A stretch of DNA of 57,138 nt from Candidatus Thorarchaeota archaeon (GCA_020348985.1 CP070761.1:1651227-1708364), one strand, 5' to 3'. Positions 1,601 to 18,583 are shown, numbered from the stretch's first letter. Notes: generated from the sequence alone by a model not told the origin. A program made the numbers and translations.

Positions 1601-2212
1601 ATGAAGACACATACAACAGATGACTTTACTTATTCCGTCACCGAAATCAAGCCCTGCCTAGCTGATGAAAAGCGAATCCGAGTAATCGCTAGTTTCGAGG
1701 CTGATCTTACTCCAATTCTGGAGATTCTGTTCCTCCATCTACGAAATGCCAACTACTCCCGAAGTCTTGCCTGTGTCACATCAAAGCGTGCTGGGTGCTC
1801 AACGACAGTCTTCGGGAGTGGAAAGATAGCCATGACCTTCCTCAAAGATGAACAGGAAGCACTGGATCAACTATCAGCCCTCGCAAGGACTTTCACGAAA
1901 GCCTTTGACTATCTAGAGGCAAATGGAAGTCCCGACCCAAATGTCGTGCATGCTAAGGAGAACATCAACGCACTCGAGATTCACAAACTTCTTCCTCGAA
2001 CCGACTGTGGTGATTGCGGAGAATCGGGTTGCTTTGCATTTGCCATTGTACTCATGAATGGGGACAGGGATATTGCTAATTGTGAGCCCCTCGAGCGGAT
2101 CGAGTATTCAGACAAGCGGAACGCTCTAGTCAGGGTCATTCAGCCAATTGATCTGGATGCAACAAAAGATGGTTGCTCTGACCTTGCAGAATTTCTAGGA
2201 CTGAAGATTTGA
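1601..2212 (+). CDS. (Fe-S)-binding protein, COG4871-like, with C-terminal putative Fe-S domain
   Basis: LLPRTDCGDCGESGCFAFA...C motif typical of the RnfB/CdhE-type FeS domain; N-terminal PCLAD motif. Confidence 0.8.
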   Translation: MKTHTTDDFTYSVTEIKPCLADEKRIRVIASFEADLTPILEILFLHLRNANYSRSLACVTSKRAGCSTTVFGSGKIAMTFLKDEQEALDQLSALARTFTKAFDYLEANGSPDPNVVHAKENINALEIHKLLPRTDCGDCGESGCFAFAIVLMNGDRDIANCEPLERIEYSDKRNALVRVIQPIDLDATKDGCSDLAEFLGLKI

Positions 2213-2294
2213 GGATGACTCGCCAACAATGGCGAAGCCAAGCAGTTTCAGTTCAGCCGAAGCCCACCACTATGAACCCCTCAAAACAGTTAAA

Positions 2295-2312
2295 TATCGA
2301 GATTATTCGATA
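2295..2312. promoter_or_regulatory. Putative ArsR operator upstream of acr3
   Basis: Perfect TATCGA-gattat-TCGATA overlapping a TATA-like TTAAATA; related sites at 4228, 5459 and 9550. Confidence 0.7.
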
Positions 2313-2351
2313 AATCGAAAAACCAAGAGACGCGTTATGAGATGAAACATA

Positions 2352-3461
2352 TTGGGTGAATCTGAAACCGGTACCAAATCTGTGGTGGGCAGTCCAATAA
2401 CGGGCCTTTCTACACTCGACAAATTCCTGCCGCTTTGGATCATCTTGGCTATGGCCCTGGGTGTCTTGCTCGGCTATCTGGTACCCGGACTTGCCGCAGC
2501 ACTGGACTACTGGAGCATTGGGACCGTATCCATTCCCATTGCAATTGGTCTCTTGTGGATGATGTATCCTGTTTTGGCAAAGGTCAAGTATGAAGAACTG
2601 GGAAAGCTGAAAGGAGAGAAGAAGATGTTTGGGGTCTCCTTGACCCTGAACTGGTTGGTTGGCCCATTCCTGATGTTTGCCCTAGCCTGGATATTCCTAG
2701 CTGATCTCCCGGACTACCGAACTGGCATAATATTGGTAGGCCTTGCTCGGTGTATAGCGATGGTTCTAATCTGGAACATGATGGCAGGAGGATGTAGTGA
2801 GTCGTGCGCAGTTCTCGTTGCACTGAACTCAGTCTTCCAGATATTCATGTACAGCCCTGAAGCGTGGTTCTTTGTCACATATCTCTCTTCTATTGTATCG
2901 CCCGGAGCTGGCTCCGTTGTAGAGGTCTCGATTCTTGAGATTGCTTGGAGTGTCATCATCTTCCTTGGGATTCCACTAGCAGCAGGAATCGTCACAAGGT
3001 TCAGCCTGATGAAACGTAGGTCAAAAGAGTGGTACGACAAAGAGTTTGCACCAAAGCTGGGACCTTACGCTTTGATTGGGCTTCTATTCACGATAGTGGT
3101 CATGTTCTCTCTGAAGGGGGACACGATTGTTGCCCTTCCATTGGACGTACTCAGAATCGCTCTTCCACTTCTTTCATACTTTGTCATCATGTTCCTAGTA
3201 TCGTTTGGAGTCTCATACGCGATGAAGTTTACGTACGACAAGAATGCGACCATATCATTCACTGCAGCAAGCAACAATTTCGAACTGGCCATAGCTGTTG
3301 CAATTGGAGTGTTCGGTATTGGCTCGGGACAGGCACTTGCGGCTGTTGTTGGTCCTCTCATTGAGGTACCAGTCTTGGTCGGGTTAGTTTACGTTTCCAT
3401 GTGGCTGGGCCGACGATTCTACGGATGGACGCAAGAGGACTCAATCCCTGCTGAAACATAA
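2352..3461 (+). CDS. acr3: ACR3-family arsenite efflux transporter
   Basis: Signature motifs MMYPVL, GLARCIAMV, ASNNFELAIAVA and GPLIEVPVL; multi-pass hydrophobic protein. Confidence 0.95.
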   Translation: MGESETGTKSVVGSPITGLSTLDKFLPLWIILAMALGVLLGYLVPGLAAALDYWSIGTVSIPIAIGLLWMMYPVLAKVKYEELGKLKGEKKMFGVSLTLNWLVGPFLMFALAWIFLADLPDYRTGIILVGLARCIAMVLIWNMMAGGCSESCAVLVALNSVFQIFMYSPEAWFFVTYLSSIVSPGAGSVVEVSILEIAWSVIIFLGIPLAAGIVTRFSLMKRRSKEWYDKEFAPKLGPYALIGLLFTIVVMFSLKGDTIVALPLDVLRIALPLLSYFVIMFLVSFGVSYAMKFTYDKNATISFTAASNNFELAIAVAIGVFGIGSGQALAAVVGPLIEVPVLVGLVYVSMWLGRRFYGWTQEDSIPAET

Positions 3462-3465
3462 GATA

Positions 3466-3845
3466 TTGCTCAACTGCTCTCGTGAGGTATGTTCTGGAGG
3501 CAATGTCTCTCGTGCTGCAACGCTTGAGGTCCTCCACCGTCTGAGACCAACTGCATCAGTGACCATTTGTCTTCCCCTTTTCCTAGCTGGAGATGAAGCA
3601 GAGAGGGAGTTTGCAAGGAATTCCTTCAAACCACAATTGATGGATGCGACAAGCTCTGTGCCGCTAAGGGCACGAAGAAGTATAGCAGTAAACCAGCCAT
3701 GGAGATGAATCAAGAGGAATATCTGGGCGAATCTTGCATAGATGTTGACGAAAGATGGAGAATAGAATGATGTAGTGAGCTAGTTGACAAAATCGCTCAA
3801 GACATTGCATCGTATATCGATCGTTTAAGAGATGAATTTAGGTGA
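3466..3845 (+). pseudogene. DGC-domain (putative zinc-binding) protein pseudogene, paralogue of 11491-11898
   Basis: Collinear with 11491-11898 but has a 1-nt deletion near 3620 and CGA->TGA at 3768-3770. Confidence 0.85.
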
Positions 3846-3849
3846 TAAC

Positions 3850-4128
3850 ATGTCTGACAAGGTTCTGGTGATGGTATTCGTGGCTATGGGGGTATGCGGC
3901 TGTAGCCAGTCTGGATTCCTAGGGCGCATCTATGAAGCCATCAGGAAATATAGAAATATTGCTGATTATAGGGAATACCAAGCCGACAGTGACATAGCAA
4001 AGAAATACGGAATTGGTTACTGTGGTGTAGTGGTTAGCAGCAAATCAGTGGGAAGCAATCCCACCACAGCTAAGATTGAAGAAGCCATTCTCAAGGAGAT
4101 TAATCAACAAGGCACAGAAGCAATATGA
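3850..4128 (+). CDS. Small thioredoxin-fold-like protein with CxC motif, paralogue of 11889-12182
   Basis: GVCGCSQSGFL motif; SD-like AGGTGA before the ATG; closely similar paralogue in the second ars cassette. Confidence 0.75.
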   Translation: MSDKVLVMVFVAMGVCGCSQSGFLGRIYEAIRKYRNIADYREYQADSDIAKKYGIGYCGVVVSSKSVGSNPTTAKIEEAILKEINQQGTEAI

Positions 4129-4227
4129 AGGATGAGCAGCATCCGCATCTTTTCTCACCTGACCTTGGACATAGCTTATACCTAAGTGCAAGTCTACAGA
4201 TGAATGAGGCGCAAGGAAAGATTGATT

Positions 4228-4245
4228 TATCGAGATATACAGTGA
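4228..4245. promoter_or_regulatory. Putative ArsR operator upstream of arsR (weak right arm)
   Basis: ATTGATTTATCGAGAT at 4221-4236 is identical to 5452-5467. Confidence 0.5.
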
Positions 4246-4356
4246 AGCACAGCAATCCACTGAAGACAGTGAAGTGGTTTGAATGTTTCAGAGAACAGAT
4301 CTCACGATGTCAAGTTCTGACGAAGCATGCTTGATTTGCAAAATTGGGGTGTCGTT

Positions 4357-4653
4357 TTGAAAAGAGACAAACAAGCTGAATGGAGAGTCCACTTCCACAA
4401 GGCCCTAAGTAATCCTGAAAGACTGAGAATAGTGGATTTCCTTGCAGACGGCGAGCAATGTCAATGCGATGTGTTTCCGCAAATTGGACTGTCTCAGTCT
4501 ACAGTCTCTTCATACCTCACTCAACTTGTGAGAGCCGGTATCCTGAATGTAAGGCGCGATGGCACCAGGAAGCTCTATAGTCTCAGTGACCCACGCATAC
4601 GCAGAATGATACAAGACATACGTGGTCTTGCTGCCGAAATGACAGCTACATGA
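4357..4653 (+). CDS. arsR: ArsR/SmtB-family transcriptional repressor
   Basis: KALSNPERLRI...EQCQCDV (equivalent to the ELCVCDL As(III) box)...SQSTVSSYL...G. TTG start after GGGGTG; upstream ATG at 4327 is an alternative. Confidence 0.9.
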   Translation: MKRDKQAEWRVHFHKALSNPERLRIVDFLADGEQCQCDVFPQIGLSQSTVSSYLTQLVRAGILNVRRDGTRKLYSLSDPRIRRMIQDIRGLAAEMTAT

Positions 4654-4723
4654 GGATTACTCCTCAGTGCGCTCAGTGGTTTTGCGAATGCAATGTGAGA
4701 CACAATTCAATCTTTTATTGTGA

Positions 4724-5347
4724 GTGTTAACCTTGATCATCAAAGACCTGGATCAGACTGGTATCACAACTGAGTTAGAACACGATGCGAATGGTAAGTT
4801 GAGGATTAGAAGTGTCATAAAACTTCAGCAAGGATCTTGTATTGGGATTGAGTCACTATGGAAACCAGATTACAGGAATTCGAATCCTGAGATGCTTGAG
4901 TCCAACATCCAAATTGGTGGCTTGGCCCTACCTTTAGCAAAGGCGCCAGCACTTTTGGCGCATAGAAATCTGATACAAGATGTAAAAGAGTGTCCCCATG
5001 AGGTCCAGACTTTGCCACATGGAGCAGAACACCCAAAAACCAGCTTGAACACAGTTCATTTGGCGACGCGTCATGACGGTGCTGAGGTTTTCCTAGACCC
5101 TTTATCTGCTGCTTTCTGGGCGCGTGACTGCAGGAGGGTGAAAGAAGTCAGTGTGGAATCAGCCGCTTTCGCTCTCAAGACAGACAGGAACAGTGTAGTT
5201 GAGAGCGCCACATGCGCCTCAGAAGAAACTTGGGAAATAATCAATGTAGTTCTTTCCATTTTGTCATTGGCTAAAGAACTTGATTCGCACGTTAGTCAAA
5301 TGGGCATATCCCTCAAGGATTTACGCACCAAGAGGCCAGAAACCTAG
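4724..5347 (+). CDS. Hypothetical protein
   Basis: 207-aa open frame; no motif recognised; could be a remnant. Confidence 0.4.
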   Translation: MLTLIIKDLDQTGITTELEHDANGKLRIRSVIKLQQGSCIGIESLWKPDYRNSNPEMLESNIQIGGLALPLAKAPALLAHRNLIQDVKECPHEVQTLPHGAEHPKTSLNTVHLATRHDGAEVFLDPLSAAFWARDCRRVKEVSVESAAFALKTDRNSVVESATCASEETWEIINVVLSILSLAKELDSHVSQMGISLKDLRTKRPET

Positions 5348-5458
5348 TCTGGTGGTGCGATTTGCGTCGAATCCCATCAGCCACACTCTGTCAAGGCCAT
5401 ATCTTTGAGTAACCATAACCTAGCGAATATCACCTCACGACTCTCCGAAAAATTGATT

Positions 5459-5476
5459 TATCGAGATTATACGGTA
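5459..5476. promoter_or_regulatory. Putative ArsR operator upstream of the DUF5714-lplA operon
   Basis: TATCGA-gattat-ACGGTA; shares TATCGAGATTAT with the acr3 site. Confidence 0.6.
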
Positions 5477-5608
5477 AATGAGTGTGATGCATACCAGGAA
5501 TCTGAATCTTAGCACTCTGTGAAGGCAGTTGTTCTCTACACCATTGTCTTACAGAATGGTATCCATTATCACCGAGACCAGTGAGGCGCTTTGTGGAGGA
5601 AGGAATCA

Positions 5609-6331
5609 ATGAATGAAATTGGATTTCCTTGTGTGGTGTGTGGGAAGAGACTTCTTGAGACTCGAGGCGATGTCATCTCCTGCAGCTACTGCGGGCACGA
5701 CGAGAAGAGCGATTTCGTATGCAAAGACCGTCATTTTGTCTGTGAGACCTGTCGAACGTGCACTCCTACAGAGATAATCCTGAAAACATCCGTGGCTACA
5801 CCTACGGATGACTCTCTGTTTTTGGCGAATCTCCTTATGCATCATCCGGCAATACCAATGTCCGGCCCAGAACACCACCTTCTAGTCCCTGCGATTTTGC
5901 TGACAGCCACACATAATGCTGGGCATAGAATGGCTCTTGAATCACGGTTACGCCAAGCATTGAAACGTGCTAATAGATTCGGATTAGGGAGCTGTGCGAA
6001 TCTGGGTGCCTGCGGCGCGGCAATGGGCGTACCGATAGCAATCAGTCTGTTAATTGGCGCCGAATACACAAAACCAGAAGAGCGTAAGACCGTGCTTCGC
6101 GCTTCTGCCGTTGCCATGACCGCGGTTGCCAATCTGCCTGCACTCAGATGCTGCAAAGCATCAGTCTATTCATCTCTGAGTGTAGGAACTGATTTCATCA
6201 GGCGGGAGTTGGAATTAGGAGTCCCGCCGGTCCCTCATCCGACTTGTCATTTCGAGGGCAACAGCCTCGAATGTGTACGACAGGAGTGCCCATACTTCGA
6301 ACAGAGCAAATTGGACGGCGATTTGACGTGA
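5609..6331 (+). CDS. DUF5714-like cysteine-rich protein with N-terminal zinc-ribbon motifs
   Basis: MSGPEHHLLVP, GSCANLGACGAA and RCCK motifs; several N-terminal CxxC pairs. Confidence 0.8.
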   Translation: MNEIGFPCVVCGKRLLETRGDVISCSYCGHDEKSDFVCKDRHFVCETCRTCTPTEIILKTSVATPTDDSLFLANLLMHHPAIPMSGPEHHLLVPAILLTATHNAGHRMALESRLRQALKRANRFGLGSCANLGACGAAMGVPIAISLLIGAEYTKPEERKTVLRASAVAMTAVANLPALRCCKASVYSSLSVGTDFIRRELELGVPPVPHPTCHFEGNSLECVRQECPYFEQSKLDGDLT

Positions 6332-7410
6332 AACAGGCGTCAGTAGTCCGATTCTATACTGGCCCAAATCCGGGCGGGATCTGGGACGCCGCTCTGGATG
6401 AAGCGATTCTTCGTGTTACGTGTGAGGACCACGGGCCTCTCACGGTTCGAGTTTGGTTGAATAAGAGTCCTGTTTTGGTTCTTCCAAGAAGCCCAATGCA
6501 AAAAGAAGGAGCTTTTATCCAAGAATGCAGCACAAGAGGAATTCATGTCACCCGCGGACTCAGTGGTAGAAGATGTCTCCTACATGGTCCTAGTGTCCTG
6601 AGCTTTTCCCTTGTTGACGAATCGAATGCTTTAGCATCTGGAGATCTAGAAAGAGAGATTTGCCAATTGCTCTCTCCTGTAATACGGGGAATCCAGTCGG
6701 AGATTCCAACAAGTGAGATTGCGTTTGACCAAGGCCATGTTATCGTAGGAGAATCGATTGTAGGTGCATTCAACACATCCTACTACTTCGACTATCTTAT
6801 GCTTCAAGGTGTTGTTCATGTTCATAGCAATCAACACTTCACGACCCTCAAGATTACGAAAGAGGGAACACGTCTTACGTGTCTTGATCAAATCCAGTCT
6901 CATGTTTCAAGCCAACATATCATGGATGCAATTAAGAAGTCAATTGCACAGAATCATGGATTGCAGATGACCAACATGCCTGCCAGTGTCAGAGTAACTG
7001 AACTCATGACTGAACTTCATCAGTGGAAATACACGAATAATGACTGGGTGTACCATCAATTAGAACCACTTGCATTGGGTCGAATTCTATTGGAATCTTA
7101 TCTTGCTTATCCACCTACTAATCGCTGCCGCGAAATAATAGCCATAGTTGATGAAATATCGAAGAAATATGCGGACAAAGTGGAATGTCGAAAATGGTTA
7201 CGAGGTCGGGGTTTGATGTCGTGGCTCAAGGGTGTGCCGCCGGGCCTTCGTCCAAGCGGGGGAGTTGTCCAAGCTTCCAAGAAGAATATCGTGCCAGCTG
7301 TAGTAGTGCAGGGGAATATCACACATGAGAGGAAAGTGCCGGTTTATGATGACCTCTGTGAAATCGTCGAGACGGCCTACAACGTGACATTTGGTGGGAC
7401 ATCTGAGTAA
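6328..7410 (+). CDS. Lipoate-protein ligase-like domain (catalytic motifs degenerate) fused to a C-terminal thioredoxin-like domain
   Basis: ALDEAIL...VRVW N-terminus as in LplA. RRxSGGG has become RGLSGRR and K[IV]SG has become SIVG. The tail has PPTNRC...PAVVVQG...KVP. GTG start overlaps the upstream stop. Confidence 0.75.
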   Translation: MKQASVVRFYTGPNPGGIWDAALDEAILRVTCEDHGPLTVRVWLNKSPVLVLPRSPMQKEGAFIQECSTRGIHVTRGLSGRRCLLHGPSVLSFSLVDESNALASGDLEREICQLLSPVIRGIQSEIPTSEIAFDQGHVIVGESIVGAFNTSYYFDYLMLQGVVHVHSNQHFTTLKITKEGTRLTCLDQIQSHVSSQHIMDAIKKSIAQNHGLQMTNMPASVRVTELMTELHQWKYTNNDWVYHQLEPLALGRILLESYLAYPPTNRCREIIAIVDEISKKYADKVECRKWLRGRGLMSWLKGVPPGLRPSGGVVQASKKNIVPAVVVQGNITHERKVPVYDDLCEIVETAYNVTFGGTSE

Positions 7411-8237
7411 TGGATACGACGTGGCGTGTTGTAATCTCAGAAGAAACTGACCCAACGTGGAATCTTGCAGTTGATGAAGCTATTCTTAGAAGTGTTATAG
7501 ACGACAACTCGCCAAACACTGTACGTATCTGGCGAAGCAGCGAGTCGGTCATAATAGGTCGCAGTCAAGATACAAGAGCGGAAGTAGACATTAGATTGTG
7601 TAATGAACTCAGCATACCAATTCTTCGACGTTGCAGTGGTGGAGGAACGGTATACATGGACCTTGGTAACTACAACTACTCTGTCATCGCAAATAGTAGC
7701 GTTTTCACTCAAGTGAAGGCAGTCCACCACATTGCACGTTTCATGTGTATGGCAGTAGTTAACCTGTTGTCGCGGCTGGATTGTGATTCAAGATTTGTTC
7801 CCCCTTCCAGCGTCTTCATTGAAGATTCGAAGGTTTCTGGATCTGCTCAGTACTTTCTCTACGAAGGCATTCTCCATCATGGCACGCTGCTGGTCAATGC
7901 AGACCTAGAACTGATGCAAGAGGTCCTGGCTCCAAATCCCACGCTTGCCAAAAGACTACGGTCTGTCCCAAGCGTATCAACCCCTGTCGTAAACCTGTCA
8001 TCGCTTTTCGGAAAGCAGTATCAATTCGAAGAGATAGCAAATCTACTGGTTGATGCAATCATGGGCACTTTGGGAGCACACAATTGGGATTTGGGACCGA
8101 CCAGCACGAGTGAGAACGAACTTACACAGCTGCTCTATGATACCAAATACTCGGACCCCTGCTGGCTTTTGGGAGTACAACGGCAAAAGCAGATTACTAT
8201 TGATTCGACAGCCCTCCCTACTAATAGAATCCAATGA
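7410..8237 (+). CDS. lplA: Lipoate-protein ligase A / octanoyltransferase family protein (catalytic domain only)
   Basis: NLAVDEAIL, RRCSGGGTVYMD, KVSGSAQ (catalytic Lys) and HHGTLL; no C-terminal LplB domain. Confidence 0.9.
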   Translation: MDTTWRVVISEETDPTWNLAVDEAILRSVIDDNSPNTVRIWRSSESVIIGRSQDTRAEVDIRLCNELSIPILRRCSGGGTVYMDLGNYNYSVIANSSVFTQVKAVHHIARFMCMAVVNLLSRLDCDSRFVPPSSVFIEDSKVSGSAQYFLYEGILHHGTLLVNADLELMQEVLAPNPTLAKRLRSVPSVSTPVVNLSSLFGKQYQFEEIANLLVDAIMGTLGAHNWDLGPTSTSENELTQLLYDTKYSDPCWLLGVQRQKQITIDSTALPTNRIQ

Positions 8238-8317
8238 GAATCTCAACTCATCTATCATCATATTCCGAGTTCATTCCGTGGGGCGGTTGTTGAGAGCGGC
8301 AATGGAGCGAAGTGTCA

Positions 8318-8412
8318 CCATCCTTAGGATGGGTAGAAGTGGAGGCTGGCGGTGGTAGGACTACGGGTAATTACCCAACTGTCATTGTTAAGCACGCTTT
8401 CTCTTTTGCAGT
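8318..8412 (+). repeat. 16S trailer repeat copy 2
   Basis: 8318-8358 is identical to 115-155 (41 bp); 6 mismatches over 83 bp against 115-197. Confidence 0.95.
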
Positions 8413-8510
8413 TATCATCTTTCAATAGACGATTCTATTCTGATTTCAAGCAAGTTCTCGAATTGTGCCTAATCCTTTGAGGGAACTATGTTGATATTCA
8501 GATGCAGTTT

Positions 8511-9101
8511 TCAATGATCATTTAATCCCTTTCCATTGAGAATTCTCTGAACATGTTTTTCAACCCTTGACTCCCGAGTTTTGGATTGCTTGGGTGCAGA
8601 AAAATATAGAATGTATGCTCTTTGCCGTCCCGGCGTCAATGCATCAAAAGCAGTTTTCAAGGCAGGGCTTTCATCTAATTTCCTTTGAAACTCTTCGGGA
8701 ATCATGAATTCTGTAGTCTTTTTGAAATCCACCTTCAAACCGGCTTTTTCTACTTCAACGGCTTCATGAATATAGACTTTCAAGATTGTTTCCATCTCAG
8801 CTATTTCCTGAACATTGGTGAACCGAATCTGGCGCACCGCCTGCGTATTTTCCCCGGGTTTGGATAGTATACCATTGGCATCTTCTATCAAGGCACCTTT
8901 GAAGAAACTGAGCACGCAGTATTCTTTGAATCCCCCTATTATTGCCACGTTATTTCCCTGAAACGTGTAACAAGGTTGACGCCACTTCAATTCTTCCGTC
9001 AGCCCACAGTCAAGTATGATCCTTCTCAATTCGCCCAATTCCTTCTGCCACTTTTGGGCTCTTGCCAAAAATTCATCAACCTTAGGATTCATTCTATTCA
9101 T
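8511..9101 (-). CDS. YdeI/OmpD-associated family protein (DUF1801 + OmdA-like domain)
   Basis: EELKWRQPCYT, LSFFKGAL and AFDALTPGRQRAYILYFSAPKQSKTR motifs; bacterial-like sequence. Confidence 0.9.
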   Translation of the reverse strand: MNRMNPKVDEFLARAQKWQKELGELRRIILDCGLTEELKWRQPCYTFQGNNVAIIGGFKEYCVLSFFKGALIEDANGILSKPGENTQAVRQIRFTNVQEIAEMETILKVYIHEAVEVEKAGLKVDFKKTTEFMIPEEFQRKLDESPALKTAFDALTPGRQRAYILYFSAPKQSKTRESRVEKHVQRILNGKGLNDH

Positions 9102-9159
9102 TTGTTGGCGCTCCGAAACGAAGTGAGCCTATATCTGCCTACAATTCCTATCTATTCTT

Positions 9160-9390
9160 TAACAAGGTATCCGTAGCGGAAGTTACGAATAAAAGAAGAT
9201 GAGAGTCAATCTAGCCTTCCATCAATTACCTCCTGTGATTTCTCTCTCATAGAAGTAGAAGCAGATTGATCTCTCTTCAGAGAGAGAGGTTCGGGTCTTC
9301 GACGGGGCAGGCGGTGCATTCGAAGAAGTTGTCCATCGCCACATTCAGACTTGCCACACTCATGCTGCCGAGCACCCTTTCATTTTGCAT
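9160..9390 (+). repeat. 16S trailer repeat copy 3, including a degenerate duplicate of the 16S 3' end
   Basis: 9160-9182 TAACAAGGTATCCGTAGCGGAAG is identical to 64-86. Then ATTACCTCCTGTGATT (~9225, cf. ATCACCTCCTTTGATT), TAGAAGTAGAAGC and GAGCACCCTTTTCATTTT (~9370), with insertions between them. Confidence 0.85.
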
Positions 9391-9549
9391 ATGTTGTCCT
9401 GTGACTAGGCAGCATCCTCATTCTCTCCTCAAGGTCATCTTGAATCGAGATTCTGCCGTTCTGGTTGTCGAATGACTCCAAAGGCTCGACATCAAGATCC
9501 GGTAAACGACTTTCAAGAAACACGGCGCGCCTCCGCAGCAACACTGATA

Positions 9550-9567
9550 TATCGAAATAAACCGATA
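9550..9567. promoter_or_regulatory. Putative ArsR operator upstream of the hdrA-like/gcvH-like operon
   Basis: TATCGA-aataaa-CCGATA followed by AATCGAA, the same downstream flank as the acr3 site. Confidence 0.7.
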
Positions 9568-9595
9568 AATCGAACATTGAAACGAGCTGATTGCG

Positions 9596-9970
9596 ATGAG
9601 TTCCGAAAGACCCGCGTTCATCATGTGTGTGTGTACGGGCAAGTGCCCGGGTTTTGGGAAGATGGATATTTGGGACTTCATCAATACAGTTCGAATGGCC
9701 CTTCCGGTTCAATATGGGATTATCCATCCCCAATTATGTGAGGAGGATGGTGATCGGTACCTGGAAGATGTTTTGAAACCCAATCAGAAGTTCTTCATTG
9801 GAGGTTGCGCTCCAACAATGCAGTACAAGCTCTTCCGGGATGCGTTCCAGAAAAGGAACCTGGACGTGAAAGGCGATCTTGTACCGATTGATGTGCGCGA
9901 CATGACTACCGAAGAGGCCATTGGTCGAGTGTCTGAGGAGCTGAAGAAACATGGATATCACCTCGAGTAA
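9596..9970 (+). CDS. Stand-alone protein resembling the HdrA N-terminal domain
   Basis: IMCVCTG...LCEEDG...GGCAP...LFR mirrors the HdrA pattern VYVCHCG...MCSDPG...AACSP...TFR. Confidence 0.7.
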   Translation: MSSERPAFIMCVCTGKCPGFGKMDIWDFINTVRMALPVQYGIIHPQLCEEDGDRYLEDVLKPNQKFFIGGCAPTMQYKLFRDAFQKRNLDVKGDLVPIDVRDMTTEEAIGRVSEELKKHGYHLE

Positions 9971-10259
9971 TCCGAGTCCAGATTTGACCTTCATGGGCGT
10001 TGATCGGGAGAAGATTCCTTGGTGGCCAACCATTGACCTGCAAGATTGTGATGGGTGCAGTGGTGACTACGACTGTCTGAAGTTCTGCCCGCACGGCGTC
10101 TACAAGCCCCTTGAGAATTCCTCGAGAATTGCCGTTGAGAATCCCTACAACTGTGTGGTCTTTTGCCAAGCGTGTAAGAAGATGTGCCCGAAGAATGCTA
10201 TCTCCTTTCCCTCAAAACGAGCCATTCTCGATTTGATCAAGAATGAGCGTGCAAAATAG
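9951..10259 (+). CDS. 2x[4Fe-4S] ferredoxin-family protein
   Basis: WWPTID, CDGC...CLKFCP and CVVFCQACKKMCP. Confidence 0.9.
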   Translation: MDITSSNPSPDLTFMGVDREKIPWWPTIDLQDCDGCSGDYDCLKFCPHGVYKPLENSSRIAVENPYNCVVFCQACKKMCPKNAISFPSKRAILDLIKNERAK

Positions 10260-10270
10260 GGTGGTGTTGG

Positions 10271-11107
10271 GTGGAACGAAAATACATCCTTCCATGCGCA
10301 GGATATGACCGTCCCGGCGGTCAGGTTTCAAGAGCCGCCGCAGAAAGACTTGCCATCATTCGTGACGATGTGATTATCGGAAGCATGGGGGCACTCTTCA
10401 AGGAACGTCCTGGTGAGATGCGTGACTATAGGACCTCCGATGTATTCTGTCTTGATGGTTGCGGAGAGAACTGCGCCTCTGAACTTGCACGTGCTAGAGG
10501 TAGGAATGACAGCACCAGCATTGTCATCCATGAGGTTGTGGGCTCAATTGAGAACTTCGAAGGAAAAGTAGACCGCTTGATGCAGTCTTTGACCCAAGAA
10601 ATTGACAAGACAAGGCCTAGGGTTTCGTCCAAGATCACTTCGGAACCTCCACATGAGATTGAGCTCATTGAGGAGAAGTTCGACAAGTTTACACTCAAGG
10701 TGGCCAAGGGTTTGAAATACTCTGACAATGACTTCTGGGTCAGCACTGAAGGAGAACAGGTTCGTGTAGGAGTCTCAGACTTCCTTCAACAGATGATGTC
10801 CGATGTGTACTTCGTGGAACTCGCTGAGATTGGCACACATGTAGACATGTTTGACGACGCAGGTCTGATGGAATCGACAAAGATTCTCGTCGAGATTATA
10901 GTCCCTGTGTCGGGGTCTATAGTAGAAGCCAATATCTCCCTTGAGGACAGCCCTGAGTTCATCAATGAGAGTCCATATGATAAAGGCTGGCTCTATGTCC
11001 TTAAGCCGGATGACATCAATGAACTGGAACTACTCCGAGATGCTCACGACTACATGACTTATGCCTTGGCGAAAGCAAAGGAGGAGATTGGAAAAAGGGT
11101 GGAGTAG
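10271..11107 (+). CDS. gcvH: DGC domain fused to a glycine-cleavage-H-like lipoyl carrier domain
   Basis: N-terminal ILPCAG...LDGCGENCA. C-terminal LKYSDNDFWV...VGVSDF...MESTK (lipoyl Lys retained)...PVSG...INESPYDKGWL. Confidence 0.85.
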   Translation: MERKYILPCAGYDRPGGQVSRAAAERLAIIRDDVIIGSMGALFKERPGEMRDYRTSDVFCLDGCGENCASELARARGRNDSTSIVIHEVVGSIENFEGKVDRLMQSLTQEIDKTRPRVSSKITSEPPHEIELIEEKFDKFTLKVAKGLKYSDNDFWVSTEGEQVRVGVSDFLQQMMSDVYFVELAEIGTHVDMFDDAGLMESTKILVEIIVPVSGSIVEANISLEDSPEFINESPYDKGWLYVLKPDDINELELLRDAHDYMTYALAKAKEEIGKRVE

Positions 11108-11110
11108 AGA

Positions 11111-11494
11111 ATGAAGAAAGTAGTAATTCCATGCAGTGGAATAGGAAAAGCATTTGGTGCTGTTGCACGTGAAGCAACGTATCTTTTGACCGACTCTGAT
11201 CATTCTAATGAATATGTGACAATATGCCTTCCATTGTTGATGACCGACGATGTAGAGTCCAAACAGAGGGTTACGGAATCCAATGTCTATACAGTTGATG
11301 GATGTCCAAAGCGCTGCGCATCAATCCTTGTTAGACATGCAGGGGGAAAACCAGTCATGGAGATAATGACGCCGAAGGTTCTTGCCGCTAACAAGGAACA
11401 CAAGCCCGAGACGGTTCTGAACATTGGCGATGGTGGTCAGCTGCTGGCAACAGACATAGTGAATCTAATTCTTAATCATGGAGATGACAAGTGA
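11111..11494 (+). CDS. DGC-domain putative zinc-binding protein
   Basis: VIPCSG...TICLP...VDGCPKRCA. Confidence 0.85.
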   Translation: MKKVVIPCSGIGKAFGAVAREATYLLTDSDHSNEYVTICLPLLMTDDVESKQRVTESNVYTVDGCPKRCASILVRHAGGKPVMEIMTPKVLAANKEHKPETVLNIGDGGQLLATDIVNLILNHGDDK

Positions 11495-11898
11495 TGGCCT
11501 TCAAACCCAAGGTGGGTCTTATCTCTTGTAGTGGTGAGGCATGTTCCGGAGGGAATATCTCTCGTGCCGCGACACTTGAGGTCCTACACTATCTGAGACC
11601 AACTGAAACGGTGACTATTTGTCTTCCTCTTTTCCTGGCTGGAGATGAAGGAGAACGGGAGTTTGCGAGAAGCTTCCCTACAATCACAATTGATGGGTGC
11701 AGCAAACTCTGTGCGGCTAGGGGTACGGAAAGGTATAGCAGCACACCAGCCATGAAGATGAATCTAGAAGAATATCTGGGAGAATCCTGCACTAGCACTG
11801 ATGAGAGATGGAGACTAGAACGAAGTAGCGAGCTTGTCGATAGAATTGCTCAAGACATCGCATCTCATGTTAATCGTCTAAGAGAAGAATGGGGGTGA
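11491..11898 (+). CDS. DGC-domain putative zinc-binding protein
   Basis: LISCSGEAC...TICLP...IDGCSKLCA. Confidence 0.85.
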   Translation: MMAFKPKVGLISCSGEACSGGNISRAATLEVLHYLRPTETVTICLPLFLAGDEGEREFARSFPTITIDGCSKLCAARGTERYSSTPAMKMNLEEYLGESCTSTDERWRLERSSELVDRIAQDIASHVNRLREEWG

Positions 11899-12182
11899 AT
11901 CAAATATCCGATAAGATTCCAGTAATGGTGTTCCTTGCAGTGGGAGTTTGCAGTTGCAGCCAGACTGGATTCCTAGGGCGCGTTTATGAAGCCATCAGGA
12001 AATACAGAGATGTTGTTGACTATAGGGAATACTCCGCTGGAAGTGATATCGCAAAGAGATATGGGATTAGCTATCGTGGGGTCGTGGTTGGCAGCAAATC
12101 AGTAGGTAGCAATCCCACCACAGCAAGGATTGAAGAGGCCATTCTCAAGGAAATCGAAAAGCAAGACTTAGATTCAATGTGA
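11889..12182 (+). CDS. Small thioredoxin-fold-like protein with CxC motif
   Basis: GVCSCSQTGFL; paralogue of 3850-4128; overlaps the upstream stop. Confidence 0.75.
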   Translation: MGVNQISDKIPVMVFLAVGVCSCSQTGFLGRVYEAIRKYRDVVDYREYSAGSDIAKRYGISYRGVVVGSKSVGSNPTTARIEEAILKEIEKQDLDSM

Positions 12183-12316
12183 TGAATCTACGTGATCTAT
12201 TATACCGTGAGACACACTCCGTCTACTACTATGGAAGTGAATTCCCTTCCAACCTAACTGAATCTGCCAAGGCCCGATACTTCAACAACCACATTCTGAC
12301 GAATGTCAGTCTGCAT

Positions 12317-12362
12317 TACGGGTAATTACCCACCCGTCACTTTTGAGCACCTGTTCATTCTT
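12317..12362 (+). repeat. 16S trailer repeat copy 4 (3' half)
   Basis: TACGGGTAATTACCCACCCGTCACTTTTGAGCACCTGTTCATTCTT aligns without gaps to 159-204. Confidence 0.85.
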
Positions 12363-12512
12363 CCGTCTGCTATTTGCGACTCCGGACTATTCTCATCGAT
12401 AAACAGAATTAAACTCACACACATTGATCTTGGTCAATCGCGAAGGACCAAGATTGCTTCAAACCCTCTTGAGAGCTTGATATCAAGTACATAAATGGCG
12501 AAATCTCTGCAG

Positions 12513-12547
12513 GTGCGTCTGACTAGGACGCACAAAACGAAAAAGAA
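12513..12547 (-). terminator. Possible terminator of the ferredoxin-domain gene
   Basis: On the minus strand a T-rich tract follows the stop, then a GTGCGTC-N7-GACGCAC hairpin. Confidence 0.35.
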
Positions 12548-12549
12548 TG

Positions 12550-13269
12550 CTACGCTGTAACTACTCCCTTGACATTTTCCTTCAGTCTTGTTCCATCCCG
12601 ATCGATTCTTGAGATTATGCCCTTTAGAGTGTGCAGCAGACCCGCAAGATCTTCATCCAGTTTCCTATGAGTAAGAATCTTCTCGACATTCAAGAGAGCG
12701 AGCTGCGCTTCATAGATTGTATCATAAACCGTACTGGGATACTTGAGGATGTATTCCTCTGACAGAACATGCTGGATTAGATCCAACAACTCGCCTGTTC
12801 CATAAACCTTCATGTCAATGGCCATTTTGGGACACGCGGAAACGCAGACACCACAGCCATGACATCTCTCTTGACGAACAAACAGTGTTCTGTCCTCTAT
12901 GATCGGAGCTTTCCACGGGCACATTTCGGTGCATAGGCCACAAAGAATACAACCTCTAGCACCATCCATTCTTACTTCAATGGTTGATAGCAATGCAATC
13001 TCTTCAGCATCCAGAGTTTCCTTCGAATCCCCAAAAACAATTGGATCCGGCACCTTTGACTTAAGCTCATCTGGATCGTGAAGGATTGCAGTAGTGCTTC
13101 CTCTCTTTCTGAGCTCTCTCTCAATCCGAGAGATGTAGATTGTGCAAGCCTGGATCGTATTCTTCAATGAAACAAGCATGTGCTTGAGATCAACGTCTGG
13201 ATGTTCAGGGAGCTTTCTAGGAAGAAGGACCCTGAATTCATGTGTCCGCCATTTCAGAGTTTTACCCAT
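12550..13269 (-). CDS. 4Fe-4S dicluster domain protein with helical flanks
   Basis: CILCGLCTEMCP and CHGCGVCVSACP. Confidence 0.85.
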   Translation of the reverse strand: MGKTLKWRTHEFRVLLPRKLPEHPDVDLKHMLVSLKNTIQACTIYISRIERELRKRGSTTAILHDPDELKSKVPDPIVFGDSKETLDAEEIALLSTIEVRMDGARGCILCGLCTEMCPWKAPIIEDRTLFVRQERCHGCGVCVSACPKMAIDMKVYGTGELLDLIQHVLSEEYILKYPSTVYDTIYEAQLALLNVEKILTHRKLDEDLAGLLHTLKGIISRIDRDGTRLKENVKGVVTA

Positions 13270-15017: not shown

Positions 15018-15395
15018 TCATCCTGCCATTTGAGACCTATCCAGGTAATATCCAACCAAGAACGCAGCAGTGAAAATCAAGGCAAATGGAATCCAGGTTC
15101 CAATGGGACTGTAGAACATCTCATAGCTTTGGAGTATGATTGTGGCAGTCAAGAAGAAGTCCAACAATATGACTGTTGCAACTATCACCAATGCAGTCAC
15201 GATTGGACTAGTGTGGTTGAACTTCTTGTAGTAGATAAATGAGAATGTTGCAGAAACGAACGGCGCGGCAGCAGCATGAACCACCAAGGCCGTGCTCTCA
15301 TCTAGAGTAGCCATAGAAGCACCCATCACTGCAAAACATACGAAGTAGATTACGATTGCATGAACAAGCAGAATCATCGATTCTTTCGGATCCAT
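15018..15395 (-). CDS. Hypothetical membrane protein (about 4 TM)
   Basis: Hydrophobic 125-aa ORF with a GTWIPF motif and SD-like GGAG upstream. Confidence 0.8.
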   Translation of the reverse strand: MDPKESMILLVHAIVIYFVCFAVMGASMATLDESTALVVHAAAAPFVSATFSFIYYKKFNHTSPIVTALVIVATVILLDFFLTATIILQSYEMFYSPIGTWIPFALIFTAAFLVGYYLDRSQMAG

Positions 15396-15582
15396 TTCTT
15401 CTCGCTCCAGGTGAACAGTGTTTAGGCCTAAGTTTCAAAACGTAACTAAATCTGTTTTGGTACTCTTTGAACTGCACACGAAGCTGACCCCGTCTGATAT
15501 GCATCCATCTCTCATCCATAAACAGATTCAAATCCAAACTATTCTCAAAACAGACGCCTGCTTCAGTACGTTGGGGAGATGT

Positions 15583-16416
15583 GTGTTGAGATTTGGCATT
15601 CAAGAGAAGCTGTTAGGACTAATGATTGCCATTATTGCAGCCTTCGTGGTTTGGCTAGCCACCGCAGATGCTCTGTCCTCCATTTTGGTTGCACTTGTAA
15701 CAGAGCTGGTCGCGTTGACTTTGGAAACGCAGGCTGAGTTGTCACATACCACAGAAGTAATCTCCGACACGTTGTCAATCTCAGAAGTCAGTGCCACGTA
15801 CGGGCCTCTGAGAGAGGTTGTGACCGAATACGACGAGATCATGAGACAAGGAAGTCCACTTCACACGCAAGAAGCACAACGAGGACTGTCAAAGTTCGGA
15901 GAGATGATCAAGGACCTCAAGAGAGGTCGGATTAGCATCCCACGTGAGGAAGCCTACGTGAGAGCAGGACAGATATTCGACACCATTGAGAAGGGCGCAG
16001 TCATAACGGATGTCGTCATGGACCCGGACAAATGGTCAAGTGGTGATTATCCGTTCTGGCATGGGACAAACATCAAAGCGGCCCAGAGCGGACTGGAAAT
16101 GACTAGAATCTTCATTATCAAGGATATGAGTTACCTGGGAGAGGAATTCTCACTTTTCAACACAATGAGGCAACAGGGCGAGGCTGGAATATCAGTACGC
16201 TATGTGACCATTGATGAGCTTGAGCCTGAACTCATCCGAGACGGAGGGATTCTTGATGACAGAATTGTCATAACAACCCTGTTCACGCCTGCTGGGGAGT
16301 TTGGGCTTTTCAAACTTGAGACGGCAAGTTCTGTTGTGGATGACAGTCGCAGGTACTTCGAACGAATTCTGGCACGTTCACATCCATTCGAGAATCTTGG
16401 TGGTTCTGATATTTAG
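15583..16416 (+). CDS. Membrane-anchored protein with DUF6879-like C-terminal domain
   Basis: Two N-terminal TM segments; C-terminal TRIFII...QQGEAGISVRYV...DGGILDD pattern; start placed after GGGGAG. Confidence 0.65.
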   Translation: MLRFGIQEKLLGLMIAIIAAFVVWLATADALSSILVALVTELVALTLETQAELSHTTEVISDTLSISEVSATYGPLREVVTEYDEIMRQGSPLHTQEAQRGLSKFGEMIKDLKRGRISIPREEAYVRAGQIFDTIEKGAVITDVVMDPDKWSSGDYPFWHGTNIKAAQSGLEMTRIFIIKDMSYLGEEFSLFNTMRQQGEAGISVRYVTIDELEPELIRDGGILDDRIVITTLFTPAGEFGLFKLETASSVVDDSRRYFERILARSHPFENLGGSDI

Positions 16417-16502
16417 CAGTTCATCAGTCAGATACATTGAATGAAGACAATAGCGTCTTACTCCGCCCAGTGTCGGCGAAGCAAAGAAAGACCCTTGTCA
16501 GG

Positions 16503-17171
16503 TTACTTTTGGAGCAGTTTACTCAATCGCATCTTCTCCTCAGGAGCCAACAATCGGTAACCATCCAGTTTCTCAAGCGGAATATAAAACGTCGGGGCGA
16601 TACACTTTGGGTGATGCCATCTATAGGATAGGTGTTCTTCATAGAAATATGGCTCCCCTATTCTGAATCGTCCTTCTTCTATTGGTCTTCCACAAGATCG
16701 GCATTTAGATCGTCCTGATTTTGCAGTCTCAACCTTCCATACCGGCTCGGGTTCTTTCTTACTTCGCTTCAGTTTTTCTAGGAAGTCGATAGGCTTCTGA
16801 CCCACCATCTCGATTGTGAATCTAAGATTGAACGAATCATATTCACTAGGAGAGAATAGAATCACAATGTCACCATCCTTTAACGAGTCTTTGATAGTCA
16901 TGTCTGGCGGCCATCGTTTGGTCTGTTTCATGTATTCAAGCGCTTGCTCTGCTAGTATCATACTGGCTTCCTTCTTTGAAATATCCCTTACCCCAGTTTT
17001 TTCGGCAATCCCATAATCTGTTTCAATGTACTTTGCACCCTCTTCTGTAACACCTCTAGATTTTATCAATACCACAGACCCTACCAGTACTGATTTTTGC
17101 AGGCGCCTTAGTCTGAATGTTTTAGTATTTACCCAGTATGCCCAATCCACTTCATAATCCACTTCGGACAT
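16503..17171 (-). CDS. Protein with C-terminal PARP-type zinc finger (paralogue 1)
   Basis: VETAKSGRSKCRSC...RFRIG...RWHHPKC equals the zf-PARP C-x2-C...H-x2-C pattern. Confidence 0.85.
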   Translation of the reverse strand: MSEVDYEVDWAYWVNTKTFRLRRLQKSVLVGSVVLIKSRGVTEEGAKYIETDYGIAEKTGVRDISKKEASMILAEQALEYMKQTKRWPPDMTIKDSLKDGDIVILFSPSEYDSFNLRFTIEMVGQKPIDFLEKLKRSKKEPEPVWKVETAKSGRSKCRSCGRPIEEGRFRIGEPYFYEEHLSYRWHHPKCIAPTFYIPLEKLDGYRLLAPEEKMRLSKLLQK

Positions 17172-17330
17172 CCAATATCGACCTGCCCGATTTGCTGCCT
17201 TAGCCCCTGGCGGCTCTCCCATACGATTGGGAGTGTTCGTTTGTGGTGTGGCGAATAACCGATTTCATAACACAAGCTTGTGTCACGCCAAGAACAGCCG
17301 CATCAAGAAAGATGCCTATCGAGTTTAACA

Positions 17331-17756
17331 TTATTCCACTTTGACCCTGTATCCCAGAGCATCCTTTGGTTCGATTGGTTTCAAAACAACCTCAAGGACT
17401 CCATTGTTGAAGGCAGCCTTTGTCTTTGAGGGGTCGAATCTCCTCGAAAACGAGTAGCTACGTCTGTACTTCCTGTTTTCACTCTCTGCCTTGACTACCA
17501 CATCGTTCTCAGTAACTGAAATGTCAATATCACTCCTGTCTACACCAGGCATCTCAAGAATGATTGTTGTCGTTCCTGTTTTTTCATCAGTGTTTATTTC
17601 CGAGAGCGGGGTGCGAAATCCCTCTTCAAAGCCACGCGCCCAATCCCAAGGATATCTCACCATTGATCTGAATACTCTTTCTATGTCTGATAGACCAAAT
17701 GAATCGAAAGGGGCCCGTCTTTCTGCAATATCTCTTCGCTCATCATCATCATTCAT
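17331..17756 (-). CDS. Small heat-shock protein (Hsp20/alpha-crystallin)
   Basis: EMPGVDRSDIDISV...KAAFNNGVLEV...GYRVKVE. Confidence 0.92.
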   Translation of the reverse strand: MNDDDERRDIAERRAPFDSFGLSDIERVFRSMVRYPWDWARGFEEGFRTPLSEINTDEKTGTTTIILEMPGVDRSDIDISVTENDVVVKAESENRKYRRSYSFSRRFDPSKTKAAFNNGVLEVVLKPIEPKDALGYRVKVE

Positions 17757-17778
17757 CGATGTTCTCTCTCCAGAATCT

Positions 17779-18492
17779 CTACTGTCTCAAGAGCCGCTTC
17801 AGACGCAATCTCTCGCTTGCGTTCAGGTTCTTGTATCCATCAAGGTTTTCAACATCATCCGCATCAATCCTTTTTGCCACACATCTCGGATGATGCCATC
17901 TACAAAAGATGCTCCCTTCACTGAAGATTGGTTCACCGATTCGGAATCTGCTTTTTAGGATTACATCTTTGCAGGAATAGCACTTTGTCTTCCCTGACCT
18001 GGCAGTTTCAACTCTCCATGATGGGTGCTGTCGTGTATCATCTTTCCCGAGTCGTGCCAAGAACATCTCCGGATCATCACCAATCAACTCTCGTGTCATA
18101 ATAAGAGCAAAGGAGTCATACTCAGTGGGCTCGTACCAAACCTCCACATCTCTCGATTCTAGAACTCTCTTCCTCGATGTGAATGGAGGCCAATGATTCG
18201 TCCCTTGCATGTACTCAAGAACTTGCCTAGCAAGTATAGTGCATGTTTGTTTCTTTGTTAGCTCCACTATGCCTGTTTCATCAACTATGCCAAAAGAAGA
18301 CCTTACGTACGTTCTCTCATCATCAATACTCTCTCGACTCTTCACCACGATGATTGCACCAACAGGAGCATGCTTCTTGACTCGCTTGAAGTTCAACGAA
18401 TCCACATCAATCCAATACGCCCACTCGGTTTCTATCTTAACCCAAACCGGTCCATGTCGATTGGGTTCCGATATTGCCCCAGATTGCATCAT
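17779..18492 (-). CDS. Protein with C-terminal PARP-type zinc finger (paralogue 2)
   Basis: VETARSGKTKCYSC...RFRIG...RWHHPRC; N-terminal WAYW domain shared with paralogue 1. Start uncertain (18492 or 18507). Confidence 0.85.
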   Translation of the reverse strand: MMQSGAISEPNRHGPVWVKIETEWAYWIDVDSLNFKRVKKHAPVGAIIVVKSRESIDDERTYVRSSFGIVDETGIVELTKKQTCTILARQVLEYMQGTNHWPPFTSRKRVLESRDVEVWYEPTEYDSFALIMTRELIGDDPEMFLARLGKDDTRQHPSWRVETARSGKTKCYSCKDVILKSRFRIGEPIFSEGSIFCRWHHPRCVAKRIDADDVENLDGYKNLNASERLRLKRLLRQ

Positions 18493-18530
18493 GTTTGCTT
18501 TCAACATGTTAATCGCCCGCATTACACATA

Positions 18531-18583
18531 CTGTAAACGATTGTATACAATATGTCATCAGATTGTTATAAACTTGTCTACAA
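18531..18583. promoter_or_regulatory. Phased TTGTATACAA-like box array over the zf-PARP promoter
   Basis: Boxes at 18531, 18541 (perfect), 18552, 18563 and 18574, spaced 10-11 bp; overlaps a minus-strand TTTATAA. Confidence 0.65.

Follow-up and report, generated by a model that had tools for sequence, protein, structure and literature searches.

A candidate arsenic-responsive regulon containing a lipoyl-carrier module in a Thorarchaeota genome

Canonical ars operons pair a CxC repressor of the ArsR/SmtB family with an Acr3 or ArsB efflux pump, are autoregulated at an inverted-repeat operator, and include ArsC, ArsD/ArsA, and thiol proteins of the thioredoxin type as accessory functions. Lipoic acid is known in this field as a textbook victim of arsenite poisoning. 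The sHdr-LbpA system, with its sLpl(AB) ligase and LipS1/LipS2 maturation, uses a GcvH-like carrier outside glycine cleavage, served by its own ligase and adjoined by an Hdr-derived iron–sulfur (Fe-S) module. The Lpd-DlaT-AhpD-AhpC chain of Mycobacterium tuberculosis uses protein-bound lipoyl as a dithiol reductant for a thiol-based defense enzyme. In Firmicutes, the GcvH-L/LplA2/SirTM-macrodomain operons place a second H-protein paralog and a dedicated LplA paralog in a stress-linked operon. Here we describe a locus of Candidatus Thorarchaeota archaeon that shares features with each of these. It lies in a stretch of 57,138 nucleotides (nt), the window (GCA_020348985.1, CP070761.1:1651227-1708364), which is part of a single-contig genome of 3.16 megabases (Mb). 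Its core is a six-gene cassette whose central protein fuses a DGC domain to a GcvH-type lipoyl carrier. We found no published description of this cassette in literature linking the DGC domain, GcvH, lipoate ligases, or lipoyl proteins with arsenic or its resistance genes, and know of no described role in arsenic biology for a lipoyl carrier, DGC domains, or these Fe-S carriers.

The locus consists of three units and a CxC arsR gene (Table 1). The units are acr3, an operon of a DUF5714 gene, a dead ligase paralog and an intact lipoate-protein ligase gene (lplA), and the cassette, which encodes an HdrA-N-like Fe-S protein, a ferredoxin, the DGC-GcvH fusion, DGC2, DGC3, and a CxC thioredoxin-like protein. 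A preliminary description, made from the DNA sequence, had listed these parts between positions 1601 and 12182. Pfam and NCBIfam scans and translations found the named parts present on the plus strand. Its calls of acr3 together with a CxC ArsR, an intact ligase (with both the RRxSGGG and the lipoyl-AMP lysine motifs), a DUF5714 protein, an HdrA-N-like protein, a ferredoxin, and CxC thioredoxin-like proteins all stood. The CQCD of the ArsR occupies what we take to be the position of the CVCD site for trivalent arsenic, As(III), in R773 ArsR. Compared with canonical ars operons, a lipoyl carrier, three DGC domains, and two Fe-S carriers stand here in place of ArsC, ArsD, and ArsA; none of the three was seen at the locus, no specific search for arsA or arsD having been made.

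The units share an operator. A 26-nt palindromic consensus with the core TATCGA-N6-TCGATA, searched with up to five mismatches, has only three matches in the 3.16-Mb genome, at window positions 2290, 5454, and 9545. One motif had been said to precede all four transcription units; a full operator is indeed present at acr3, DUF5714, and the cassette, but arsR has a half-site only. Related loci (numbered L001 and so on) were scanned with the 18-nt core and up to three mismatches, for which the background is 25 matches on both strands of this genome (6.3 Mb). In 17 related loci the core is found close upstream of the cassette, at most about 100 nt from its first gene. The operator is also found upstream of acr3 in L002, L004, L005, L006, L012, and L015, and L006 has in addition a variant of the arsR half-site type upstream of arsR (at 4908) and a counterpart of the DUF5714 operator (at 6125). 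Six cassette loci lack a nearby arsR or Acr3 gene (L001, L003, L009, L013, L017, and L020). Because all six keep the operator, co-regulation, as judged from sequence, is the best-supported single point of this work.

Linkage to ars genes recurs across 27 cassette loci, this one included. An ArsR-family gene is present in 16, and all 12 regulators that were translated carry CxC (CQC, CVC, or CNC). An Acr3-type gene is present in 17 of the 27. Four divergent Acr3-type transporters (about 34% identical) score 281.5 to 287.9 bits against TIGR00832, with one just below the cut-off of 282.8. There are at least five different gene orders. L007 runs cassette, arsR, acr3; L030 runs arsR, acr3, DGC, DGC, HdrA-N-like, ferredoxin, fusion; and the cassette of L029 faces an acr3-arsP pair. 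Since the orders differ among loci, the linkage is evidently not one inherited arrangement. A lipoyl module unlinked to ars genes elsewhere, which the preliminary description had named as fatal to its proposal, is not what the relatives show, and the operator is kept where linkage is lost. Together with the lipoyl and ligase evidence given below, the comparisons support an arsenic-type regulon that contains a real lipoyl-carrier module, and we consider it probable that the cassette functions in a response to arsenic or a metalloid.

Full-length DGC-GcvH fusions fall into about 25 clusters at 50% identity, and every one that bears a taxon name comes from an Asgard archaeon. They are patchily distributed: of the genomes sampled, 21 of 60 from the family contain one, as do 15 of 191 from other Asgard archaea. 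Such a distribution would be expected if the cassette had no functional link to arsenic and simply traveled in a resistance island, or if it served another soft metal or metalloid (Sb, Cd, Te, or Se). The local rearrangement and duplication seen at this locus are typical of accessory islands, and CxC sensors are not arsenic-exclusive. Against it, linkage recurs in several independent gene orders, and the shared, genome-private operator is retained across loci even by unlinked cassettes; we regard this explanation as improbable.

The lipoyl carrier is well defined. The H domain of the AlphaFold2 model of the fusion (mean pLDDT, the predicted local distance difference test, 85) superposes on pea and E. 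coli H-proteins (1htp, TM-score 0.94, 36% identity; 1dxm, Z 22.6). The lysine that would bear the lipoyl group, Lys204 in an ESTK motif, is invariant in 25 of 25 aligned homologs with 44 to 79% identity to the query and at least 95% conserved in 94 sequences, and the claim that the fusion retains this residue is borne out. By sequence and modeled fold, the central protein of the cassette is thus shown to be a genuine lipoyl carrier. It scores just below the GcvH equivalog cut-offs (NF002270, 114.2 bits versus 117; TIGR00527, 109 versus 115.85), and the genome has a canonical gcvH beside gcvT at 2.74 Mb, some 1.08 Mb from this locus. For these reasons we assign the fusion as a lipoyl-carrier paralog, not the H protein of glycine cleavage. 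It also differs from the Firmicutes systems, as no sirtuin or macrodomain accompanies it, and its H domain is 36 to 40% identical to true H-proteins versus 20 to 21% to GcvH-L.

Lipoate appears to be available to the carrier. At 2.32 Mb (C1:2324500-2329400; L023:2508-7356) the genome holds in a row two radical-SAM genes, an LplA-DUF116 fusion of 553 amino acids (aa), and an FAD oxidoreductase, the LipS1/LipS2/LipT layout for lipoate assembly. Judged from this LipS1/LipS2-type cluster, the genome can make lipoate; canonical LipA has no match in it (TIGR00510). Each of the other lipoyl acceptors looked at in the genome has a ligase nearby. Beside the cassette, lipoate ligases of four lineages (61-66%, 40-45%, 31%, and 28% identity) occur in seven loci. 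In an eighth (L032) a ligase is linked to arsR, and in a distant Asgard locus (L019) a DUF5714 gene (37% identity), a full-length LplA, and an ArsR gene are divergent from the cassette. That ligases have been recruited to the cassette repeatedly speaks well, if indirectly, for lipoylation of the H domain. The LplA of the window ends after its catalytic domain, without the accessory C-terminal domain (TIGR00545, 164 bits, below the cut-off of 280). Known two-part lipoate ligases need that domain, or a separate LplB, for adenylation.

The HdrA-N-like protein and the ferredoxin are constant members of the cassette. Profile matches of the former to HdrA cover its N-terminus (7bkb_A, residues 7-93, E 7.5e-4; 5odc_A, residues 3-90), with nothing else meaningful, and four of its five invariant cysteines align with HdrA cysteines. 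Unlike HdrA, it is matched over residues 7-93 only, without thioredoxin-reductase-like FAD or ferredoxin domains. The locus likewise departs from the sHdr-LbpA system in that the HdrA N-terminal domain is a free 124-aa protein, the carrier is fused to a DGC domain, and the genes have an acr3 neighbor and appear to be under ArsR control. Pfam and NCBIfam scans of the main open reading frames (ORFs) at 1601-13269 found no HdrB/CCG, HdrC, flavin domain, DsrE3, or TusA.

The resemblance to sHdr-LbpA raises a sulfur-based alternative, in which the lipoyl arm would carry sulfane sulfur, strip thioarsenates, and yield As(III) for Acr3. Thioarsenates are main arsenic species in sulfidic sediment, and LbpA is a proposed sulfur carrier in sHdr. 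The pairing of an HdrA-derived domain with a GcvH-like carrier that has its own ligase recalls that system, and the sediment habitat suits it. In L029, rhodanese and DsrE/TusA/DsrE genes flank the cassette. Yet sulfur-relay neighbors occur in that one locus only, and the scanned ORFs contain no HdrB/CCG, HdrC, DsrE, or TusA, which makes thioarsenate processing by this route a poor bet. As a separate observation, L029, a distant cassette locus, has acr3 next to arsP, of the methylarsenite permease family, as well as the DsrE/TusA/DsrE set (15212-17360 and 17616-18843).

Since two Fe-S electron carriers are constant in the cassette, their presence argues for turnover and not mere binding. This bears on a further alternative, an As(III) sink or metallochaperone, which was the first option of the preliminary description. 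Here the dihydrolipoyl arm and the three- and four-cysteine DGC sites would simply bind As(III) and deliver it to Acr3, much as ArsD serves ArsA, while the Fe-S proteins only keep thiols reduced. That trivalent arsenicals chelate dihydrolipoamide is established chemistry. The three invariant cysteines of the fused DGC domain and the cysteine clusters at the predicted DGC2-DGC3 interface (below) resemble S3-type As(III) sites, and the cassette is immediately beside acr3 in 17 of the 27 loci. For pure binding, however, two constant electron carriers would be superfluous, and six cassette loci have no pump nearby; nor do we know of any chaperone for Acr3. On balance a binding role is rather unlikely.

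The DGC family (PF08859) has, to our knowledge, no known function. All three DGC domains of the cassette score above its cut-off of 27 bits (35.9, 51.6, and 57.8) and have the conserved cysteines and the DGC motif. The preliminary description had counted further DGC proteins besides the fusion; DGC2 and DGC3 are such, but a third ORF (3466-3708) is part of a pseudogene. Profiles of DGC2 and DGC3 matched nothing significant among PDB sequences. Complex prediction, which had been proposed as a check and was run on DGC2 and DGC3, supports a heterodimer, with an interface score (ipSAE) of 0.78 versus 0.00 for the best control. Among solved complexes 58 of 80 attain that mark, as against 2 of 110 mismatched pairs; these counts are approximate here, own alignments having been used. 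Runs agree in at least 85% of contacts, with partner pLDDT of at least 82. The cysteine loops form the predicted interface (C8, C39, C65, and C69 of DGC2; C13, C44, and C74 of DGC3), and C39 of DGC2 is placed against C13, C18, and C74 of DGC3.

The prediction supports, but does not show, a DGC2-DGC3 heterodimer with an inter-subunit cysteine site. We infer that the cysteine of the 'CLP' motif completes the three-cysteine site of the partner. In the fused DGC domain, with three invariant cysteines and no 'CLP' cysteine, that site would then remain accessible to a substrate or to the lipoyl arm. Cysteines of two homologous units facing each other, as predicted here, recall the metalloid site of ArsA and other interface-bridging clusters, although the folds are unrelated and an ATPase is lacking here.

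The cassette also has variable neighbors. These bear on a general thiol/disulfide repair or antioxidant relay, which would be induced by arsenic stress without acting on arsenic, a ferredoxin-driven lipoyl protein reducing thioredoxin-, AhpD-like, or peroxiredoxin partners. A CMD/AhpD-like gene lies inside the cassette of L021, and AhpC/Redoxin occurs with CcdA and Thioredoxin_3 in L018, L029, and L030. The window itself has CxC thioredoxin-like genes, and the genome has elsewhere a trio of an E2 acyltransferase, a ligase, and a CMD gene. The likeness to the M. tuberculosis chain stops short, as the electron source here appears to be ferredoxin and Fe-S proteins and not NADH with Lpd, and no peroxiredoxin is present in this window. 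The most constant partners of the cassette are instead Acr3 and a CxC ArsR, and no other units of the genome carry the operator. We therefore consider a relay that bypasses arsenic unlikely.

Two side observations concern these neighbors. In L021, which is from another Asgard archaeon, the CMD/AhpD-like gene stands between the ferredoxin and fusion genes (8640-8990), and a CC_Se_fam protein replaces the thioredoxin-like gene (10760-11050). The E2 trio (C1:2794800-2797600; L026:2774-5568) consists of an E2 acyltransferase with a lipoyl domain, then its own LplA, then the AhpD-like CMD protein, a layout that recalls the mycobacterial lipoyl-AhpD relay.

The function we propose is a redox one. 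As the electron carriers are constant and no ArsC gene was found in any cassette locus annotated, a reductase-type role is tentatively preferred, at somewhat less than even odds. As(III) would bind ArsR, and the repressor would leave the TATCGA-N6-TCGATA operators. acr3, the lipoylation operon (DUF5714, dead ligase, and LplA), and the six-gene cassette would then be derepressed together, and LplA would lipoylate the fusion at Lys204. Low-potential electrons would travel from ferredoxin and the HdrA-N-like [4Fe-4S] protein to the Cys-rich heterodimer of DGC2 and DGC3 and to the DGC domain of the fusion, and these would reduce the lipoyl disulfide. As a two-electron dithiol, the dihydrolipoyl arm would then either reduce an arsenic species (arsenate, a thioarsenical, or an organoarsenical) or capture the resulting As(III). 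A helper role is possible for the CxC thioredoxin-like protein, whose gene follows DGC3 in most Thorarchaeota loci. As(III) would exit through Acr3.

In its full form, the proposal is that a ferredoxin-dependent enzyme system working without ArsC uses protein-bound lipoate as its catalytic dithiol to reduce arsenate or thioarsenates, or to process arsenic in some other way. It would operate in strict anaerobes, among them the Asgard relatives of eukaryotes, and the DGC proteins would provide a novel type of Cys/Fe-S or As(III) site between subunits. We put the probability of this proposal at roughly 0.3. If it is true, an arsenic-regulated lipoylated protein would turn the target of arsenic into a tool, which would add a mechanism to arsenic resistance, open a new branch of its biochemistry, and give lipoate a new role. 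Electrons at the ferredoxin level would reach a lipoyl disulfide without an NAD-dependent E3 enzyme. The DGC domain, the free HdrA N-terminal module, and perhaps DUF5714 would gain a first functional context. Because the archaea that carry it are abundant in sediments, the system would also bear on arsenic cycling under anoxic conditions there.

Several observations weigh against this proposal. Some concern the sensor and the substrate. ArsR is taken as the operator-binding protein from co-occurrence and the conservation of the operator, and ArsR/SmtB sensors of the CxC type are able to respond to Sb, Cd, Pb, or Bi as well. Arsenic in anoxic sediments is mostly As(III), so a reductase may be unnecessary there. 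The variable neighbors of the cassette (AhpD-like CMD, AhpC/Redoxin, CcdA, rhodanese, and DsrE/TusA) fit a general thiol or sulfur relay equally well. The preliminary description had reported no arsC, arsM, or gcvT in the window; ArsC is indeed absent from the locus, but the genome has elsewhere, besides gcvH and gcvT, an arsM (318 bits) and a full-length low-molecular-weight phosphatase (LMWP) match to the pI258 ArsC family (117 bits, below the cut-off of 174). PF03960 ArsC has no match in this genome, and the best LMWP falls below the arsC cut-off. Even so, the ArsC-like LMWP gene weakens the claim of ArsC-independence.

Other such points concern the proteins. The modeled DGC domain has a flavodoxin-like alpha/beta fold, with an uncharacterized Wolinella protein as the best match (3pu6_A, Z 9.3). 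The fold match is generic, and ArsC-type LMW phosphatases, at Z 6.7-6.8 (1jf8_A, 6.8; 3rh0_B, 6.7), are within noise. The CX5R loop of arsenate reductases is absent from the DGC domains, whose loops read C-A-G-Y-D-R, C-S-G-I-G-K, and C-S-G-E-A-C. Because DGC2 and DGC3 are paralogs, their predicted interface may be a generic DGC-DGC mode. An ortholog of the window LplA occurs in only 5 of 60 other family genomes, and the dead ligase with its tail in only 9 clusters among 5.8 billion proteins, all Thorarchaeota-like; on these counts the dedicated ligase operon is a rare add-on and not part of the cassette core. One genome (G134, 92% complete) has a lone LplA ortholog of 64% identity (L031; G134:C14:40708-41481), and no DGC-GcvH fusion was found in it.

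Table 1. Annotated features of the locus, in window coordinates, with the basis of each call
Feature	Coordinates	Strand	Basis and remarks
Fe-S protein, 203 aa	1601-2212	+	PF04060 [4Fe-4S] motif behind TBP-like fold; Pfam FeS E 8.8e-11
Operator O1, palindrome	2290-2315	.	37 nt upstream of acr3; one of 3 genome-wide consensus matches
acr3, arsenite efflux permease	2352-3461	+	TIGR00832 428.2 bits versus cut-off 282.8; equivalog cut-off met
DGC3 first-copy remnant, pseudogene	3466-3845	+	5'-truncated, one frameshift, one in-frame stop (three-frame translation); 3482-3845 80% nt identity to 11534-11898
CxC thioredoxin-like protein, copy a, intact	3832-4128	+	GVCGCS motif; 78% nt identity to copy b
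Operator half-site O2	4223-4248	.	Upstream of arsR; left arm kept, right arm degenerate
ArsR/SmtB repressor	4327-4653	+	HTH_5 E 3.7e-11; NF033788 70.6 bits; CQCD in metal-binding helix
unk207, conserved 207-aa protein	4724-5347	+	Orthologs in L001, L002, L004, L006, L009, L013, L032
Operator O3	5454-5479	.	Upstream of DUF5714-ligase operon; perfect consensus match
DUF5714 protein, Cys-rich, N-terminal zinc ribbon	5591-6331	+	PF18978 E 1.7e-42; sole copy in genome
Dead LplA paralog with C-terminal single-Cys thioredoxin-like tail	6328-7410	+	LplA-B_cat 23 bits only; catalytic Lys and RRxSGGG replaced
Intact lipoate-protein ligase (LplA), catalytic subunit	7410-8237	+	PF21948 158 bits; RRCSGGG and KVSGSAQ; TAATG overlap with previous stop
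Operator O4	9545-9570	.	26 nt upstream of cassette
HdrA-N-terminal-domain-like Fe-S protein, 124 aa	9596-9970	+	Five invariant Cys
2x[4Fe-4S] ferredoxin	9951-10259	+	Fer4_9 and Fer4_7 matches; 20-nt overlap with previous gene
DGC-GcvH fusion	10271-11107	+	GCV_H E 2.8e-31; DGC E 8e-9; DGC Cys C9, C64, C68; linker; H domain with lipoyl Lys204
DGC2	11111-11494	+	PF08859 E 1.1e-13; four invariant Cys: 8, 39, 65, 69 (alignment)
DGC3	11491-11898	+	PF08859 E 1.3e-15; four invariant Cys: 13, 44, 70, 74 (alignment)
CxC thioredoxin-like protein, copy b	11889-12182	+	Weak SaoT-like match, E 5.5e-6, below cut-off
16S end/trailer repeat pieces	115-207, 1163-1187, 8318-8407, 9160-9190, 9366-9390, 12317-12350	.	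Repeat search

The remaining genes of the locus are less readily placed. The DUF5714 protein has an MbdU-like match (E 1e-37) that falls below the cut-off, and a search for longer, fused DUF5714 proteins returned none. Matches to MbdU, SaoT, and TsoR, which are NCBIfam selenoprotein-operon models, all score far below their cut-offs. The dead ligase starts at a GTG (6328) that overlaps the DUF5714 stop as GTGA. It had been described as a degenerate ligase-thioredoxin fusion. The degenerate ligase stands; for the tail, Pfam is silent and a sequence pattern suggests thioredoxin. Its AlphaFold2 model (pLDDT 48, 8-row alignment) is unusable. The tail of DGC2 (residues 77-124, window 11340-11485) was tried as an E3-binding domain and rejected, since the top three PDB matches have E 0.26-0.38 and Pfam E3_binding is found in none of 17 members.

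Orthologs of the 203-aa Fe-S protein lie upstream of acr3 in L004-L007, L014, L016, and L018; no operator was found in front of the gene in the window. The unk207 gene sits after arsR or the thioredoxin-like gene in Thorarchaeota loci, and its product has no Pfam or NCBIfam match and no usable Atlas match. The ORF at 4125-4334, inside which the operator half-site of arsR falls, is unlikely to be a gene. Elsewhere in the genome (C1:2103940-2104932; L027:5085-6002) is a second acr3 (414 bits) with an in-frame TGA and no ArsR or operator nearby, probably a broken copy.

The closest relatives of the window proteins all come from named Thorarchaeota or, more broadly, Asgard archaea. In L004 and L006, 13 genes form one uninterrupted cluster in the order Fe-S protein, acr3, HdrA-N-like, ferredoxin, DGC-GcvH, DGC2, DGC3, thioredoxin-like, arsR, unk207, DUF5714, dead ligase, LplA. 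Because these relatives hold the same 13 genes contiguously, the window locus reads as a rearranged version of that cluster. Region 3482-4133 duplicates 11534-12187 at 80% nt identity in a repeat search. Behind acr3, a first copy of the cassette has been reduced by deletion to a pseudogene and a thioredoxin-like gene, and a complete second copy lies 6 kilobases downstream. The earlier call of 3466-3708 as a DGC gene was wrong, this ORF being part of the decayed DGC3 duplicate. In addition, a DUF1801/YdeI gene on the opposite strand is inserted between the ligase operon and the cassette.

A 16S rRNA gene reaches into the window with its 3' end (positions 1-106; Rfam, 74 bits). Fragments of this end and of its trailer recur, with 85-92% identity, on the far side of the cassette and around the DUF1801 insertion, which suggests that recombination at these repeats reshaped the island. 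One sediment contig (run X2) joins 8400 to 9366 and omits 965 nt with the DUF1801 gene, a weak hint of a variant without the insertion, as the shorter side spans just 22 nt and the joint is inside the repeats. No contig of four sediment runs bridges the junction of acr3 and the pseudogene. The window DNA itself recurs in sediment metagenomes, with no RNA run among those listed for it, and in these four runs short contigs match pieces of it at about 99% identity, including 3683-5051 and 6027-7649.

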